Of a DNA stretch of 64,000 bases, positions 19,217-58,703 are shown one piece after another. The stretch lies in IMG/VR virus record IMGVR_UViG_3300006033_000017. One strand, written 5' to 3'. This DNA comes from a virus. Taxonomy: Duplodnaviria > Heunggongvirae > Uroviricota > Caudoviricetes. Positions within the stretch are counted from its first letter, which is position 1. Each line of letters begins with the position of its first letter. The notes below the pieces were generated by a model. That model saw only the letters and a list, made by a program, of their open reading frames with translations. It was not told where the DNA came from and searched no databases. The translations under genes were made by a program, and so were the position numbers.

Positions 19217-19579
19217 ATGCTCGAAGAAGCCAAGACCTGTATCTTCCTAAGTATCATTCTAGTGCTGAGTGTCATAGCTCTATGCGTCAGCATGAAGAAG
19301 GTCTGGTATCCTGGGATTCTATTCGCAACGCTACTAACAATTGGTCCCGCAGGTTTTCTAATTAACGCCTACGCCTCCACCACCTACGGCGAGTCGCTTG
19401 CCGCCCAAGGCATCGCCACCGTGGCGCTCACAGGGCTTCTAGCGGCTTGCGCTGTCGGGATGGGGCTAGGTGCCCTGCTCAACCTGGGGTTCCTCACAGG
19501 GGCCTTTAGCTCCCTGGTGGCGGTGCTCCTGGCGAGCTTGAACCGGGTCCGCCAACAAAAACCGCCAAGTGATCTATAG
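19217..19579 (+). CDS. polytopic small membrane protein (3 predicted TM helices; holin-like topology)
   Basis: three hydrophobic segments; the C-terminal half is encoded by a markedly GC-rich segment. Confidence 0.45.
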   Translation: MLEEAKTCIFLSIILVLSVIALCVSMKKVWYPGILFATLLTIGPAGFLINAYASTTYGESLAAQGIATVALTGLLAACAVGMGLGALLNLGFLTGAFSSLVAVLLASLNRVRQQKPPSDL

Positions 19580-20800: not shown

Positions 20801-20820
20801 TTACTAGGATCCAAATATAG

Positions 20821-20858
20821 CAAAGCCCCCTTGTGCTGTCCAAGGGGGCTTTGCCATT
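20821..20858. terminator. bidirectional rho-independent terminator
   Basis: AAAGCCCCCTTG-tgctgtc-CAAGGGGGCTTT perfect 12-bp stem between convergent genes. Confidence 0.7.
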
Positions 20859-20871
20859 AACGAATGATGTC

Positions 20872-21132
20872 TTACAACTCGCCGGGATAGACGGCACAAA
20901 CACAATCCGCAAGAATGCGTCGAGGAATGATGATTTGTGCATCGTCAACCTGATGCAAGGTCAAACTTGCGATCTGATCATTTTCTACCGCAGTCATAAT
21001 CTTATCATAGGTTTCGACATATTGATCGAACGTAAACAGTTCCGTTTCATCATTATCAGGATCGCGATTAGTGGGAACTTCACGACACTGAAAGGAACAA
21101 CCCGTAGGGATGTGAGTAATTACGACGTACAT
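20872..21132 (-). CDS. hypothetical protein (86 aa)
   Basis: ORF. Confidence 0.35.
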   Translation of the reverse strand: MYVVITHIPTGCSFQCREVPTNRDPDNDETELFTFDQYVETYDKIMTAVENDQIASLTLHQVDDAQIIIPRRILADCVCAVYPGEL

Positions 21133-21144
21133 AACAGTTTCCTA

Positions 21145-21172
21145 TCTGGGTAGGGCGTTGCCGCCCTACCCT
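21145..21172 (-). terminator. stem-loop (GGGTAGGGCG-ttgc-CGCCCTACCC) after the pilin-like gene
   Basis: perfect 10-bp GC-rich inverted repeat; weak U-tract. Confidence 0.4.
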
Positions 21173-21182
21173 ATCGCCAACA

Positions 21183-22022
21183 TTAGCGGCGCGAGCTACT
21201 AGACGAACTAGAACTGGATCGACTACTAGAGCTACTAAAGCTACTAGAGCTACCGAAACTTCCTGAAGAAGATCGCCCACTAGAGCTAAAGCCACTCGAT
21301 CCACCGAAACTACCACTACTGCGGCTAGGACTTGAGCCGCCAAAGCTACCACTACTCCGACTAGAGCTTGAGCCACTCCAACTACTACTTGGACGACTAG
21401 AGCTTGAGCCAAAAGACCCCTTGGAACTCGCTGCCGAACTTCCGCTATTGAAAGAGCCTCTCGACTTACTAAAAGATCCACCTGAAGTGGGCCTTGAGCC
21501 TGAGAAGCTACTACCAGTTCGTGCCTCGGGTACAGAAGGAACAGTCGTACTCTTTGATCCAAAAGAACCACTAGATGTACTAGGCGTACCGAAACTGCCC
21601 TTTGCCGGTGGGCGAGTGGTCCTTACTTCAGCAGCAGTAGCAGTACGAACAGCAGGCCGACTAGTTACCGCAACATATGGCTTACTATATCCCGGTGGGT
21701 TAGCATGATAGTAATACGAGTAATGCGACGTAGTATAGTAACGACCACGATAAGCACCACCGTAAGGATTAGCCATCCACCAAGAATAGGTCGGGAAGTA
21801 ATCATCATCGATAATCACAACCGGGGCCGGAGCAGCCGCCATGTATTCAGGTCCGACAGGTTGAACCGCCATTCCATTATGGCGACTGTGGATATCCCCC
21901 GCCACACCAACAACAATCGTACCAACAATTGCCAGCATCGCAATGACAACCAGCATCTCAATCAGGGTAAAGCCCTTCTTACGCATCTTCTGTTTCCTTT
22001 TCTTTGATTTCACCAAGTACAT
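21183..22022 (-). CDS. type IV prepilin-like protein with a Tyr-rich region and a long Ser/Gly/Arg-rich repetitive tail
   Basis: KKGFTLIEMLVVIAMLAIVGTIVVG matches the class III prepilin cleavage/methylation signal (G|FTLIE); then (SGSFGSSS)n low-complexity repeats. Confidence 0.6.
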   Translation of the reverse strand: MYLVKSKKRKQKMRKKGFTLIEMLVVIAMLAIVGTIVVGVAGDIHSRHNGMAVQPVGPEYMAAAPAPVVIIDDDYFPTYSWWMANPYGGAYRGRYYTTSHYSYYYHANPPGYSKPYVAVTSRPAVRTATAAEVRTTRPPAKGSFGTPSTSSGSFGSKSTTVPSVPEARTGSSFSGSRPTSGGSFSKSRGSFNSGSSAASSKGSFGSSSSRPSSSWSGSSSSRSSGSFGGSSPSRSSGSFGGSSGFSSSGRSSSGSFGSSSSFSSSSSRSSSSSSSSSRR

Positions 22023-22653
22023 CTTTGACGGCTTGGCTTAGTTTAGCAAATGTATCATCGCCCTTCGCGAGAAAGGCAGCATTAGTCTCTCGTAATTTGG
22101 CCCAACCATCTACAGAAAAACTAGCCGCGAAGGCTATACGCTGAAAGCCATGAGTACCACAAAGGACACTAATAACATCCGCGTAGATATCTGAAAAGTT
22201 AGGGTTCCATCCAATCTCTAATTCTTCTTCTGCTCTCTTTGTCTGTCGTTCGCGATAATCAGGATAACCTGGATCATCAGATTTGACACGCTGTTCAATC
22301 CACCTAATGTCTTGTTCGTAGTTTTCCCGAACTTTTTGGGTTTCTGCCTCTAGTCTATATTTTACAACCTCAGCAGCAACTTCATTAATCAAATCAGCGA
22401 ATTGTTCATCAGTGTATCGCTGTTTGCTAATTAGCTGGAAAGAGCCCGAATCCTCAAAACTGTGATATCCGACATCGTAGAAATAGATATCGAATTCCGA
22501 GGTTTTATCTGGCTCTAGTTTTAGGCGGCGAGCTAAGCGCTCGGGCGTCCCTGCTAGTATAGCACAGATAGTACTTGGTGTAATGGCGGGTGTTTTAAGT
22601 TCTTCCATTGGGATCAACCTTAAGCTCGAAGTGATCACACACACCGCTAGCAT
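21979..22653 (-). CDS. hypothetical acidic protein (224 aa)
   Basis: ORF. Confidence 0.45.
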   Translation of the reverse strand: MLAVCVITSSLRLIPMEELKTPAITPSTICAILAGTPERLARRLKLEPDKTSEFDIYFYDVGYHSFEDSGSFQLISKQRYTDEQFADLINEVAAEVVKYRLEAETQKVRENYEQDIRWIEQRVKSDDPGYPDYRERQTKRAEEELEIGWNPNFSDIYADVISVLCGTHGFQRIAFAASFSVDGWAKLRETNAAFLAKGDDTFAKLSQAVKDVLGEIKEKETEDA

Positions 22654-23741: not shown

Positions 23742-24551
23742 TTATCCATGACACAGATTCCACAAACCAAGTTCGCGTGCGCGCCGCAAAGCTACAGCAG
23801 CGATATCGATTTGATTAATGTAGATATATTCAGCCGTTTCGTTGGCGGTCACAACAACGATTCGAGCTTCTTCCTTGTCCAACCAAAGATCAGTGTGCCT
23901 CTCATCTTGATTGTATGTTCCCAACCAATCATATTGTCGCGTAGTAGTTAGATCGTACTGAGGAACACACCCCCCAAACGTACCATAAACTGCCCTAAGG
24001 TTACGTGCTTCTCCATTAGTAAGAGTCTGAGATCGATACATAATCTCCCCATTACATTCAAGAGAATACCAAGCATCACCAAATAGGTCTGTGGCTCGAC
24101 GAATAGCCGCATCAAAAGTAACAATTGGAGCACCATACTCATCACAAAGAAGGTGACCGAAAATGTTGCCATTCCTATAGGCTCGGACCTGTTCCCGAAC
24201 CGACTTCGGGGTCGAGGACATATTAACCTCAAAAGCCTGCTCACTCAGTTGTCGTTGAACACTCTGCTCTCGAAGTTGAGTCATACTCGCAAACAGTTTC
24301 TTTCCGCATTCTTTTAGGCTTTCACCCCTAACTCGGATTGTATTCATTTGGACAATATACGCAGGAGGATAAGCACCACCATGGTCGATTTGAGGCTCAC
24401 AAGTAACCTGCAACTCCACCTTCAATTCTTGTTCATTAACCTTCTTAGTACCAGTACAAAGGGCCACGTTTTGTTGCATCCAATCAACAGTCCAGTCCCA
24501 ATCAGGCTTAAGTTCGCGGATCCACTTAGTGACGGTCTTCAATCGCAACAT
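23742..24551 (-). CDS. hypothetical protein (~269 aa from the MLRLK Met)
   Basis: the track ORF starts with TTG inside a promoter; GGTGGAG RBS precedes the first ATG. Confidence 0.45.
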   Translation of the reverse strand: MLRLKTVTKWIRELKPDWDWTVDWMQQNVALCTGTKKVNEQELKVELQVTCEPQIDHGGAYPPAYIVQMNTIRVRGESLKECGKKLFASMTQLREQSVQRQLSEQAFEVNMSSTPKSVREQVRAYRNGNIFGHLLCDEYGAPIVTFDAAIRRATDLFGDAWYSLECNGEIMYRSQTLTNGEARNLRAVYGTFGGCVPQYDLTTTRQYDWLGTYNQDERHTDLWLDKEEARIVVVTANETAEYIYINQIDIAAVALRRARELGLWNLCHG

Positions 24552-24573: not shown

Positions 24574-24602
24574 ATTGTACCACGTCGTGACGCAGGTGTC
24601 AA
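24574..24602 (-). promoter_or_regulatory. sigma70-like promoter TTGACA-N17-TACAAT
   Basis: minus-strand gcTTGACAcctgcgtcacgacgtggTACAAT. Confidence 0.55.
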
Positions 24603-27488: not shown

Positions 27489-27707
27489 TTACCACTCATC
27501 ACGGTGCTCCTGTAATACCTTGATTGCTAACTTGCATCTCTGAATTGCTTCGGTAATAACCTCATCGGTCGCTTCTTCACGATACTTGTGTAGGACTGAG
27601 GCAACACAACCCTTTAACTCGGCTTCACCTATCTTGTAGAGGGAACGAGTTCCCATCGGTGCTAATTCTTGCATCATATAATACGCAAGCTTCATTGATG
27701 TCATCAT
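27489..27707 (-). CDS. hypothetical protein (72 aa)
   Basis: ORF overlapping the Thg1-like gene stop. Confidence 0.35.
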   Translation of the reverse strand: MMTSMKLAYYMMQELAPMGTRSLYKIGEAELKGCVASVLHKYREEATDEVITEAIQRCKLAIKVLQEHRDEW

Positions 27708-28471
27708 ACTTCTGCCTTCAGAATTGGCTCCGCGCCACGGAATACAACATCTTCCCTATTCGCGATGCGAGTCATAATAGGAATTGATAGTTGATGATAT
27801 TCTGAGCGTTGATATGTTTCACCAGTATCAGCTTTAGTGTGAAAAACTGGTACCTTCCTGAAATACGCACCACGCTTCAAGTGATCCGCATAATCATTCC
27901 AGTTAATGCCCTTCTGAAAGATCATCTCCTGAAGAGCATCGCATTTCTTGCCCTGCAACGCAGAGTGACTATAGAGACTCTGCGCAACCATCAAGATACT
28001 GTTGCGAACCGCATCGACTTCACGCCAGATCAAGGCGTTAGTGGCTTCATATTCAGTTGGGACGCTCCATACACGGCAATCAAACAAAGGGTTCAAATGC
28101 GCTTTCTTGGGAAGATAGGTCGGCAGTTGCTTGTTAAAGAAAACCGACGCCATACTTGCTAACAAAGAAGTCATCTTGGCAACACGACCATCAAAGAAGA
28201 TCTTGCGCTCAAAATCATCCTGTTGCCAAATTAGCGTAATTTCATCAGATTGTGTGTAAGAAATAACAGCATGAGTTTCTTTCACAAGATACTTAGCCGT
28301 TTCATGCATCAATTGCCGCAAATCATCATCAAATGGGCGCGCAAGGCCGCGACAAAATGAGTGAAATGCCTTACCATCTAGACGTGCCATGGCGGGCGCG
28401 AGCGGCATGAGTCGCGCTTGCGGGCCACAGTACAGGTTCTCATAGTATTTCATTCTATCCGACAGATCCAT
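27704..28471 (-). CDS. Thg1-like protein (tRNA-His guanylyltransferase family; 3'-5' nucleotidyltransferase)
   Basis: MARLDGKAFHSF ... ISYTQSDEITLIW aligns to the Thg1 catalytic core RLDGRNFHRF / AYGQSDEYSF; colinear similarity over the whole length. Confidence 0.8.
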   Translation of the reverse strand: MDLSDRMKYYENLYCGPQARLMPLAPAMARLDGKAFHSFCRGLARPFDDDLRQLMHETAKYLVKETHAVISYTQSDEITLIWQQDDFERKIFFDGRVAKMTSLLASMASVFFNKQLPTYLPKKAHLNPLFDCRVWSVPTEYEATNALIWREVDAVRNSILMVAQSLYSHSALQGKKCDALQEMIFQKGINWNDYADHLKRGAYFRKVPVFHTKADTGETYQRSEYHQLSIPIMTRIANREDVVFRGAEPILKAEV

Positions 28472-34645: not shown

Positions 34646-35845
34646 CTAAGCATTTTGCAATGTCTCGAATATCCGCGAATCTATAGGTTTGAAACCGGCA
34701 CCGTAAGGTCCGGTAAGGAATCGATTCAAAATATTCTTACTCGCGTTTGTATCCGCATTGTCTCCATGACCACAACTGAGACACAAGAACACCTCTCCGT
34801 TTCGATTCCTCTTATCGACATGACCACATAGCGGACAGGTGATACTGGTATTATAACACGAAACGGTTCTGAAGGAAACACGGTTTTCTTCACACCCCAT
34901 TTGTACCCGGTCTAACCAATATCGCCATACCCAACTGCCGATAACTCGACGCATACTTTTAGAGAGGCGTCGTCTCTCCTTTGCCTTATGGTTCAGATTA
35001 GATAACTTCTCCACAACCACAAGATCAATACTTTTATTAGTTACGATCTGCCTCGTAACTTCGTCTATTCGTTGTTTCAAGGCCCTACGAGCTTTCTTTT
35101 GGCCTTTCGATCCCTGATTACAACGATTGACTCTGTTCACACAATCTTTAATATCTCTACCTAATTGCTCTCCAGTAGAGAATGAAGCCAAAGCATTAAT
35201 CCCAGAGTCTATACCGATAGCATTGAGCCCCGTTTTCTTTGGACCAGTTTCAATCTCGAAACAGAACTGAACACTATCTCTGGTGATAATGTAGCTATTC
35301 AGTCTTGTTCCCAATTGATTCCATTTGTTGAAATGCTTGTGTTTTTTAATCGGAAGATCCATCACAATCTTATTGCCAATTGAAGCTAGATGCAACCAAG
35401 AATCAAATTCTGATGCTGCCTTTGAAGCCACTAACTTAGCAATGTTACAATTGGCGCAAATTCTATCTCCTTTGTGTGTCGGCTTAACGGGCTTGATTGT
35501 TTCTGCTTTTTGTCTTAATTGATTGGCCTTAACTTCGTATTTAGCTCTTTCTGCTTTGGCTAATAATCGTTTTTTCTCATTTTTGGCTTTCTCTTGAGAA
35601 GAATTAATCAGATCAATAGCTTCTCTTGCACAGACCTTTCTCATTCTATGAGAAAACCAAGAATCAGGGAGGTTGATTATATCTTTGAGCAAGTCTGCTT
35701 TTGTCGGGCATTTATCTAGTGCCCAGAAAGAATCAATGAAGATATTGCAGAGTCTTCCGTATTCGATCAACACAATGCTAAGCTCCTCTCTCTTTTTTAA
35801 GGTCGAGAATTTAAGGGTACATTGTGTTGACCGAATGATTTTCAC
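34646..35845 (-). CDS. tnpB: TnpB (IS605 OrfB-family RuvC-like, putative RNA-guided nuclease)
   Basis: RuvC-I GIDSGINALA, RuvC-II VVVEKLSN, zinc finger CPLCGH...CLSCGH, RuvC-III DNADTNASKNI; N-terminus MKIIRSTQCTLKF is typical. Confidence 0.8.
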   Translation of the reverse strand: MKIIRSTQCTLKFSTLKKREELSIVLIEYGRLCNIFIDSFWALDKCPTKADLLKDIINLPDSWFSHRMRKVCAREAIDLINSSQEKAKNEKKRLLAKAERAKYEVKANQLRQKAETIKPVKPTHKGDRICANCNIAKLVASKAASEFDSWLHLASIGNKIVMDLPIKKHKHFNKWNQLGTRLNSYIITRDSVQFCFEIETGPKKTGLNAIGIDSGINALASFSTGEQLGRDIKDCVNRVNRCNQGSKGQKKARRALKQRIDEVTRQIVTNKSIDLVVVEKLSNLNHKAKERRRLSKSMRRVIGSWVWRYWLDRVQMGCEENRVSFRTVSCYNTSITCPLCGHVDKRNRNGEVFLCLSCGHGDNADTNASKNILNRFLTGPYGAGFKPIDSRIFETLQNA

Positions 35846-57399: not shown

Positions 57400-57698
57400 T
57401 GCCCCTGTCTGGAGTTGAACCAGCGTCACCCGGTTATGCTTACCACTATAGTTTTCACTACCAAACAAGTTGTTTGTGGTCTGGACTCTCTCTTCACCAT
57501 AGATTATTATCTTTAGGTGTTCCGTGTTGAGTCTCTACACCTTGCAACTTTCGTTGCCTTGGCTCGGGATTGCCATTTCACAGGGTTCCCCGAATTTACG
57601 GAATAATCACAGCAATAGTTTCCTATTGCCGCGCCCTCTTTTGTGCTTCTAAAGCACGTTAGCGAAGCCGGACGCTCTAACCATTGAGCTACAGGGGC
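57400..57698 (-). tRNA. tRNA with anticodon CAU (Met or Ile-lysidine type) interrupted by a 227-nt group I intron in the anticodon loop
   Basis: 5' exon GCCCCUG-UA-GCUC-AAUGGUUA-GAGC-G-UCCGG-CU (57666..57698) and 3' exon CAUAA-CCGGG-UGAC-GCUGG-UUCAACU-CCAGA-CAGGGGC-A (57400..57438); all stems pair; intron ends in G. Confidence 0.7.
57439..57665 (-). ncRNA. group I self-splicing intron (IC3-like, Azoarcus / cyanobacterial tRNA-intron type)
   Basis: AAAUUCGGGGAACCCUG ... GGCAAUCCCGAGCCAAGG ... GGUGUAGAGACUCAACACGGAACACCUAAAG ... CUAUGG ... GAGAGUCC closely match the conserved P3-P8 core of the Azoarcus tRNA-Ile and Anabaena tRNA-Leu introns. Confidence 0.65.
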
Positions 57699-57824: not shown

Positions 57825-58703
57825 TTATCCCGCCATAAAAGCCTTAAGCTCCTCAATAACCGCCGCCAATTCATTCTTGAGTCTAGCCATTGGGACCTTA
57901 TGCATCGTTACCTTCGGTGCGAGACGATATGGCGAAGAATACAGGCTCTGGCGATCTTCACACTTGCAATATGACAGAACAGCAGTACGTTTATCGCGGC
58001 TCGATCTATAGAGCGTTTCTTTTTCCACATCAAGAGATATATGCAGGCTGTTGCTTTGAGCCTCAATATGCTTATCGCTCTTTCGGATAGTATAGCCCTG
58101 GCGACTCAAGCCTAGCCTCACCATAATTTCCATCAAGAACAATTGCCCCTCCTTGTGGAAGAACGTATCGAAATTACGTCCGAAATAGAGATCACTACCG
58201 ATTCTATTAAGAAAAGAGCTAATCTCATCATCCTTCATAGCAACAACGCATTCTTGCACAGGAATGTCATGTGCCTCAAAGAATTCCAGATAAGTCTCCA
58301 TACGCATATTCGAGTGATAGAAGTTATTAGAACTGCTCGAAGAGTAAGCCCCCATAGTAATGTGAGCTTGTTCACCTACTGAAGTGGTGAATTCAAAACT
58401 AATCCCTGAAAGCTCTCCTTTACCCTTAGGAAAGAGATACTTAACCACGTTCTTAGCTGAGAGAATTTCCTGAAGATGCCGTTCTTTCTTTACTGCTGCG
58501 TCTTCTTGTTCTCTTTGACGACGAGCCAAAACGCCTTCGTCAATGCATTCGAGACTTTGATGATAGACATCCAAGGGAGCCATATCAGGGAACTTAACTA
58601 GGCTACATCTATCATTACTTCCTGGACCAATAGTAACACCTTCCGTACCAGCAACAAGCCCGGTACGATACGCGGTTAGATCAGTAGTTAGGCGTACCTT
58701 CAC
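57825..58703 (-). CDS. hypothetical protein (292 aa)
   Basis: ORF; upstream TTGACT-N18-TATGAT. Confidence 0.45.
   Translation of the reverse strand: MKVRLTTDLTAYRTGLVAGTEGVTIGPGSNDRCSLVKFPDMAPLDVYHQSLECIDEGVLARRQREQEDAAVKKERHLQEILSAKNVVKYLFPKGKGELSGISFEFTTSVGEQAHITMGAYSSSSSNNFYHSNMRMETYLEFFEAHDIPVQECVVAMKDDEISSFLNRIGSDLYFGRNFDTFFHKEGQLFLMEIMVRLGLSRQGYTIRKSDKHIEAQSNSLHISLDVEKETLYRSSRDKRTAVLSYCKCEDRQSLYSSPYRLAPKVTMHKVPMARLKNELAAVIEELKAFMAG

Follow-up and report, generated by a model that had tools for sequence, protein, structure and literature searches.

A phage-borne gene predicted to join a headless type IV pilin stem to a conserved, orphan low-complexity extension

Phage mimics of pilins, headless ones included, have already been published, and the concept is part of the literature. 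Virulent Pseudomonas phages encode truncated PilA-like proteins that keep the N-terminal ~60 residues only and for which pilus interference is a proposed, unproven function (PMC12952977). The P-FimU minor-pilin mimics of Pseudomonas aeruginosa prophages have the full FimU/GspH-type fold and complement a fimU deletion (PMC12952977), and the haloarchaeal provirus SNJ2 encodes pilins that rely on the assembly machinery of the host and that modify how viruses interact with their hosts and with one another (PMC12426801). The modular pilins PilB and PilC of Streptococcus sanguinis consist of a complete pilin module to which a folded domain is added (PMC8179133). Here, we analysed a pilin-like gene found at 21183..21986, on the minus strand, of a 64,000-nucleotide stretch of the virus record IMGVR_UViG_3300006033_000017 (IMG/VR). 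This stretch, called the window hereafter, corresponds in reverse complement to the first 64 kb of a metagenomic contig of at least 157 kb (ENA ERZ27247451, k141_1195142). The predicted product is a type IV pilin stem without a detectable head, and the novelty appears to lie in the joining of this stem to ~230 conserved, orphan, largely low-complexity residues. The word "unusual", used for such a phage gene in an earlier reading made from the sequence alone (the sequence-only reading), was thus an overstatement, since phage pilin mimics are published (PMC12952977) and three short PHROG families match the same N-terminus. We regard the finding as a well-supported annotation that holds no surprise for the field, with a function that is predicted.

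The closest known proteins appear to be the stem-only PilA-like proteins of the virulent Pseudomonas phages and the short PHROG families. In the same way as the protein studied here, they are phage-encoded, headless and made of a prepilin-type signal and an alpha1N stem; however, they end after the stem, whereas the pilin-like protein adds ~230 residues under purifying selection. As the likeness is limited to a generic N-terminal motif, it does not establish common descent. P-FimU is a phage-made type IV pilus component relying on the host machinery, which is a putative role in the case of our protein, and it is full-fold and prophage-borne, whereas the pilin-like protein is headless and located on the contig of a large, probably virulent phage. 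With the type IV pilins and type II pseudopilins in general, the protein shares the basic leader, Gly-1, Phe+1, Glu+5 and the ~25-residue hydrophobic alpha1N helix, but it has no alpha1C, no beta-sheet head, no cysteines and no assembly genes nearby. Like the modular pilins, it has a pilin N-terminus followed by a C-terminal module of another kind, which a filament would display, but only the stem is left of the pilin module and the added part is predicted to be disordered. The SNJ2 pilins are also products of viral genes, but they are archaeal and complete, make up the dominant filaments and belong to a temperate virus. PilA-N of Geobacter (Geopilin domain 1) is a cellular protein that pairs with a separately encoded head, PilA-C. 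It is, like the protein described here, a short stem-only pilin, and the PDB chains 9egp_A and 7tgg_A align to residues 2-27 of our protein, but no partner corresponding to PilA-C was seen for the latter.

In the list of open reading frames (ORFs) of the window, the gene is contained in a minus-strand frame of 279 amino acids at 21183..22022. Its product has a sole relative, a protein of 254 amino acids with 88% identity, encoded on a contig of 1.8 kb that was assembled from another sample. Translation most likely starts at the ATG at 21986, leading to a protein of 267 amino acids with a stop codon at 21183-21185. This start is retained because it is used by the gene calls of two independent assemblies (ENA and JGI), which give an identical product, because the first ATG of the frame, at 22022, is not conserved and is replaced by ACG in the related contig, because a Shine-Dalgarno-like AGGA read from the sequence (21995..21998, minus strand), 8 nt 5' of the ATG, is kept in this contig, and because the start codon shares nucleotides with the upstream gene's stop codon (ATGCGTAA).

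The pairwise ratio of nonsynonymous to synonymous substitution rates (dN/dS) between the gene and its relative is 0.13. The nucleotide differences are distributed as 20/11/64 over the three codon positions, i.e. 64 of the 95 differences are at the third position, and both indels are in frame, one of them corresponding to the deletion of exactly one 12-codon repeat unit in the relative. Moreover, six different Ser codons are used, in a mixed way. These data argue for a real translated gene under purifying selection, including its low-complexity tail, for which a dN/dS of 0.10 was obtained; the case envisaged by the sequence-only reading as a refutation, a low-complexity region that is non-coding, is thereby ruled out. 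Low-complexity DNA does give long ORFs in several frames, and two non-functional origins of the ORF were considered, a frame open by chance through such DNA and a host pilin gene that was captured and is now decaying in part; we judge this extremely improbable. Two long ORFs, 21080..21571 (minus strand) and 21421..21708 (plus strand), overlap the Ser-rich tail in another frame or in antisense; the repetitive AGT/AGC/TCT codons make them by-products, and the third-position bias backs the annotated frame only. A non-coding or chance ORF is rejected on the substitution pattern (third-position bias, in-frame indels and low dN/dS), and the mixed Ser codons, the diverged DNA repeats, the start coupled to the upstream gene and the AGGA also count against it. 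Likewise, the strong purifying selection acting on the extracytoplasmic part indicates that it is functional and not the remnant of a host gene in decay.

The protein starts with MRKKG|FTLIEMLVVIAMLAIVG, with Gly-1, Phe+1 and Glu+5. The features of a class III signal, a short basic leader, Gly-1, a hydrophobic residue at +1 and Glu+5, are all present (MRKKG|FTLIE), and a motif scan found this type of prepilin motif only once in the window. The N_methyl family of Pfam (PF07963) matches with 32.8 bits for a gathering cut-off of 21.2 (E=4.3e-8), and the NCBIfam model TIGR02532 with 30.1 bits for a cut-off of 16.3 (E=2.8e-7), which confirms the class III signal KKG|FTLIEMLVVIAMLAIVG of the sequence-only reading. 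From these two models, we infer that a prepilin peptidase would cut the leader peptide MRKKG (residues 1-5; 21972..21986, minus strand) after Gly5. The leader is followed by an alpha1N-type hydrophobic helix, FTLIEMLVVIAMLAIVGTIVVGVAG (residues 6-30; 21897..21971, minus strand), predicted by the Kyte-Doolittle profile and by AlphaFold. This is the only hydrophobic segment of the protein and a strong one, with a 19-residue maximum of 2.84 at residues 11-29, and it has the length of ~20-25 hydrophobic residues expected of alpha1N. AlphaFold2 places a helix at residues 8-37, with mean predicted local distance difference test (pLDDT) values of 67, 84 and 69 for residues 1-10, 11-20 and 21-30, respectively, and residues 1-30 form the sole blocks with a mean above 50. 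The protein contains no cysteine.

The search for a pilin head, i.e. an alpha1C helix packed on an antiparallel beta-sheet, detected none in Pfam, NCBIfam, the PDB or the AlphaFold model, the latter being computed from a 2-sequence alignment. The matches with pilin and pseudopilin families all end by residue ~47 of the 279-residue ORF, which corresponds to residue ~35 of the 267-residue protein. Eighteen pilin or pseudopilin models of NCBIfam match the N-terminus, and all of them, except the generic TIGR02532, are far under their own cut-off; the GspH model, for instance, covers residues 16-43 only, with 22.6 bits for a cut-off of 80. Five PHROG families of unknown function match the N-terminal motif and helix only, among which phrog_13280, phrog_10597 and phrog_11263 have profiles of 59-72 positions that match residues 13-42 of the 279-residue ORF. 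The PDB matches are N-terminal or compositional, and the longest, 6xxe_A, spans residues 6-93 with a marginal E=0.0096. As no head domain was detected, the protein does not count as a complete pilin or pseudopilin, and the sequence-only reading, which had named the protein in this way, holds for the stem but not for a pilin in the full sense.

Homologue searches gave the same limit. A full-length word-indexed search returned only the protein itself and its 88%-identical relative, and an exhaustive HMMER search (phmmer) with residues 36-267, which covered 1.84 billion representative proteins, found nothing beyond this relative. A word-indexed search with the core only (residues 36-135) was empty, the query itself being absent from the output, which was taken as a limit of the word index. 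No homologue was found in phage records by DNA and protein searches, nor in IMG/VR and GTDB (one genome per species), and residues 36-267, which include the repeat tail that the sequence-only reading suggested looking for in other phages, had no match in phage records or IMG/VR. The 43 N-terminal amino acids gave one chance-level match (E=0.8) by tblastn against phage records, the short query and the low-complexity filter being the probable cause. A scan of metagenomes yielded 80 loci, which, except for the known relative, share the N-terminal 25-76 residues only and continue past the leader and helix as ordinary small pilins or DUF1559-like proteins. Beyond the N-terminus, no similarity to a specific host pilus component was found with HMMER or in phage records, IMG/VR and GTDB. 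By these searches, the residues beyond ~35 appear to be an orphan.

This orphan part is composed of two regions. The core (residues 36-128; 21603..21881, minus strand), delimited by its composition, is rich in Tyr, Pro and Ala (15% Ala, 14% Tyr and 13% Pro, with 13 Tyr, 2 Trp and 12 Pro) and includes SHYSYYYHANPPGY, the Tyr/Pro-rich stretch already noticed in the sequence-only reading. The tail (residues 129-267; 21186..21602, minus strand) is a Ser/Gly/Phe/Arg low-complexity region defined by composition, motif shuffles and dN/dS. It contains 51% Ser, 17% Gly, 8% Phe and 7% Arg, has a net charge of +13 and ends with SSSSSSSSSRR; its low-complexity nature and its C-terminus are therefore as first described, and its length is 139 residues instead of ~150. 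The tail carries 11 S-[F/W]-[G/S/N] motifs, ~11 residues apart, 8 of them being G-S-[F/W], a number reached by none of 20,000 composition-preserving shuffles, and the spacing of its aromatic residues (6-19 residues) is unusually even, being equalled by 8 of 20,000 shuffles. The imperfect SGSFGSSS repeats of the sequence-only reading are thus real, and the repeat exceeds what chance and composition give. The underlying DNA repeats are old, with an identity of only 70-80% among three 36-nt units, and Tandem Repeats Finder reported two short 9-nt arrays only. Both regions are strongly constrained against the relative, with a dN/dS of 0.037 for the core (residues 41-128), lower than that of the tail. 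AlphaFold gave pLDDT values below 50 for residues 33-267, from an alignment that held 2 sequences only.

Eukaryotic low-complexity domains of the FG-nucleoporin and hnRNPA1/FUS types have evenly spaced aromatic residues. The tail is like them in composition only (Ser/Gly spacers, regular [G/S]-F-[G/S] and Arg); there is no homology, and the tail is predicted to be extracytoplasmic. It is conceivable, although improbable, that the core and the G-S-F-G/Arg-sticker tail form a cohesive low-complexity domain which the pilin stem would export and display, on the pili of the host or inside its pilus or secretion conduit, as a self-associating brush or plug, possibly glycosylated, sealing a receptor or a channel. 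If so, it would be the first domain resembling the phase-separating or FG-repeat ones to be anchored by a pilin in a virus of bacteria.

From what is established for type IV filament subunits, such an N-terminus is predicted to be inserted in the inner membrane, leaving the C-terminus outside, and to be cut after Gly5 by a peptidase of the PilD/GspO type, and its alpha1N helix should be able to contact other pilins, the assembly platform and pilin-sensing kinases. On this basis, we propose, with a probability of roughly 0.45, that the protein mimics a pilin stem and alters a receptor on infected cells by decorating, capping or jamming the type IV filaments of the host. At least in its route of entry, it would work as a phage pilin mimic does. 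The protein would first insert into the host inner membrane, with its N-terminus in and its C-terminus out, and the host prepilin peptidase would then cut after Gly5. The alpha1N helix would engage the type IV pilus, the type II secretion pseudopilus or the competence pilus of the host. The stem might enter the fibre, which would be decorated or occluded by the bulky, possibly glycosylated tail; alternatively, it might poison or titrate filament assembly. In both cases the pilus receptor would be changed or missing, which would lead to superinfection exclusion and would keep the progeny from being lost on cells that are already doomed. Masking or binding would be the task of the conserved extracytoplasmic part, as the payload. 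Cleavage, topology, contact with the filament machinery and the exclusion phenotype are what we infer from the signal and the stem, and the roles suggested by the sequence-only reading, receptor masking, superinfection exclusion and adhesin, are plausible ones.

Phage-made pilus components represent a newly recognised form of phage-phage competition at the receptor, which this gene would extend to a large uncultivated phage and to a reduced design, a stem with a conserved disordered module attached. Should the stem suffice for entering or jamming filaments, it would be a minimal natural probe of how pilins are recognised by the peptidase, the platform and the sensor kinases, and the orphan core with its tail of regularly spaced F/R residues would be a new kind of payload.

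The genes called in the 68 kb of contig that were examined (positions 1-67,877) include, according to Pfam, no prepilin peptidase and no pilus or secretion assembly gene (ATPase, platform protein, peptidase or secretin), so the machinery of the host would be needed. This absence counts only weakly against membership among the pilins, host dependence being expected for a phage gene. Several other points weigh against the pilin-stem mimic. The type IV filament system that it would need is a putative feature of the host. Because no head was detected and because a Pro-rich stretch begins ~10 residues past the helix (first Pro at residue 43), a stable incorporation into a fibre is uncertain. Selection on the core and tail is as strong as on the stem, which means that the key activity may be exerted in the periplasm, through an interaction that does not involve pili. 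Many non-pilus proteins of some phyla carry prepilin-type signals, as illustrated by the DUF1559-like metagenome loci. The neighbours in the gene cluster have no significant Pfam, PHROG or PADLOC family that would provide a functional link, and among the defence-system models of PADLOC no family matched the pilin-like protein, two neighbours giving chance-level matches (E ~0.006).

Some of these observations are also those expected if the stem is a generic membrane anchor (N-in, C-out), with a core and tail acting in the periplasm or envelope and not on type IV filaments. Candidate activities would be the timing of lysis, contact with the peptidoglycan or outer membrane, or a superinfection exclusion like that of Imm and Sp of phage T4. 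The strongest constraint at the protein level lies at residues 41-128 and not on the stem alone, no pilin head was detected, no pilus genes are nearby, the MRKKGFTLIE leader is also carried by many non-pilus metagenome proteins, and the gene belongs to a cluster of small orphans typical of the accessory regions of large phages. However, the full consensus Gly-1, Phe+1 and Glu+5 is kept, with identical nucleotides in the two variants, whereas a plain signal-anchor needs no Glu+5, and none of the known families of Imm, Sp, holins or spanins proved homologous in the Pfam and PHROG searches. We hold the generic anchor to be somewhat doubtful.

In another reading of the same regions, the protein would be an adhesin displayed on the pilus, an extreme modular pilin whose stem places it in the host filament or at its tip and whose sticky core and tail modify host adhesion, aggregation or biofilm to the benefit of the phage. 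The extracytoplasmic part is indeed aromatic-rich, with evenly spaced F/R "stickers", pilins made of a pilin module and a grafted functional module are known (PMC8179133), and the SNJ2 viral pilins foster their host's formation of biofilms and its motility (PMC12426801). Known modular pilins, however, retain a complete pilin module, while only alpha1N is present here; in addition, a large phage of virulent type has little time in which to profit from host adhesion, and no adhesin domain was detected in Pfam or the PDB. An adhesin seems unlikely.

The comparison of the two variants at the nucleotide level revealed an uneven distribution of the differences. Over 22150..21925 (minus strand), a block made up of the final ~170 nt of the upstream gene together with the signal and the beginning of the helix, they are 95-100% identical for a background of 85-90%, and the first 22 codons of the gene are nucleotide-identical, i.e. 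with zero synonymous changes. The most divergent stretch follows directly (residues 23-40, 67% identity, dN/dS 0.47), and a second near-identical block is present at 21800..21711 (minus strand). An explanation at the RNA level was considered for the first block and rejected, its fold being no better than that of shuffled sequences (z = 0.03). The near-identical blocks would reflect either a recombination mosaic or a constraint on synonymous sites, two alternatives that two sequences cannot separate.

Within the gene, nucleotide conservation is highest in the stem, and it may also be asked whether this stem acts as an intramembrane signal that imitates the pool of pilins in the host inner membrane and acts on a sensor kinase of the PilS/PleC type, thereby shutting down the expression of the major pilin or redirecting the signalling of c-di-GMP and of the cell cycle. 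In Caulobacter, the 17 N-terminal residues of mature PilA suffice for signalling through PleC (PMC7196804), and PilA binds PilS in the membrane and controls its own expression, according to Kilmury & Burrows 2016 as reported in a paper that cites it. Nevertheless, the strong constraint on 230 further residues would be left unexplained, the host sensor kinase concerned is a putative one, and the nucleotide-identical block, since it takes in ~170 nt of the upstream gene, may be a recombination tract. We consider such a signal quite improbable as the function of the gene, and the pilin-stem mimic is the reading that we retain.

The gene content supports the phage origin given by the sequence-only reading, the contig being probably that of a large phage. 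A Thg1-like tRNA-His guanylyltransferase gene (27704-28471, minus strand) matches phrog_4717 with E=3e-76, and its best tblastn matches are in uncultured huge phages of 485-635 kb and in jumbo phages; no tRNA genes were found in the window. The contig also carries phrog_2319, common to ~145 phage records, the Pfam families Phage_30_3, Gp80 and Peptidase_U49, an amidase endolysin and a dCMP deaminase, and 49 PHROG families were matched among 80 ORFs. A group I catalytic intron was detected at 57463-57662 (minus strand; Rfam RF00028, 60.2 bits for a gathering score of 50, E=8.6e-13). Because the 68 kb accessible contain no virion genes and a search of IMG/VR did not return the contig, the phage origin is graded as probable rather than proven. 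The phage is probably of the virulent type.

The pilin-like gene is the eighth of nine co-directional and tightly packed genes running from 24551 down to 20872. The upstream gene (21979..22608, minus strand), whose stop codon takes part in the ATGCGTAA overlap, encodes an orphan of 209 amino acids with a dN/dS of 0.09 and no match in Pfam, PHROG or homologue searches except itself. The downstream gene (20872..21132, minus strand; gene calls), the last of the cluster, encodes an orphan of 86 amino acids with a dN/dS of 0.41. A sigma-70-like promoter match, TTGACA-17-TACAAT with an upstream TG (24574..24602, minus strand; 11 of 12 positions), is located ~23 nt 5' of the gene that opens the cluster (start codon at 24551); it is weak evidence, as sigma-70-like sites are no commoner in the region than in shuffles, and it is the lone consensus match.

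The sequence-only reading placed a strong bidirectional terminator and a GC-rich hairpin on the two sides of the gene. The GC-rich hairpin is present directly 3' of the gene (21148..21171, minus strand), between the stop codon and the ribosome-binding site of the next gene, with a 10-bp stem, a GCAA loop and no U-tract. The 63-nt segment that holds it folds with z = -4.5, and its stem is kept in the relative through an A-to-G change giving a G-U pair, with one extra pair. The second structure, a long terminator-like hairpin with a stem of 14-17 bp at 20820..20854, readable on both strands and situated between convergent genes, has fold z values of -5.6 (minus strand) and -4.5 (plus strand), but it lies past the 86-residue gene and does not flank the pilin-like gene, which has no 5' hairpin since it overlaps its upstream neighbour. 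The T-runs of this second hairpin are weak; a proper T-run is absent from both structures, and a consensus terminator scan called neither of them.

Other features were noted in the same region. Just 3' of a 292-amino-acid orphan ORF (57825..58703) lies the group I intron, and a split gene may have this ORF as one of its exons. An ORF of 120 amino acids at 19217-19579 (plus strand), with several hydrophobic segments, is a gene call in the JGI assembly and not in that of ENA and has no PADLOC match and no assignable PHROG match; it possibly encodes a small multi-pass, holin-like membrane protein. A TnpB-like gene (34646-35845, minus strand; Pfam Cas12f1-like_TNB, E=3e-12) adjoins a small MerR/HTH_17 gene; it was tried as an indicator of the host, but its best genome relative, in an Anaerolineae metagenome-assembled genome, is 37% identical, which is too weak for an assignment. 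Finally, the 68 kb contain two CTP_transf_like genes, two metallophosphoesterases, an SPFH/Band 7 protein and several AAA ATPases, a 338-amino-acid Amidohydro_2 protein adjoining an N6_N4 methyltransferase, and weak Pfam matches to a Lit-like Peptidase_U49 and a dual-specificity phosphatase, an accessory content that is unusual for one region.

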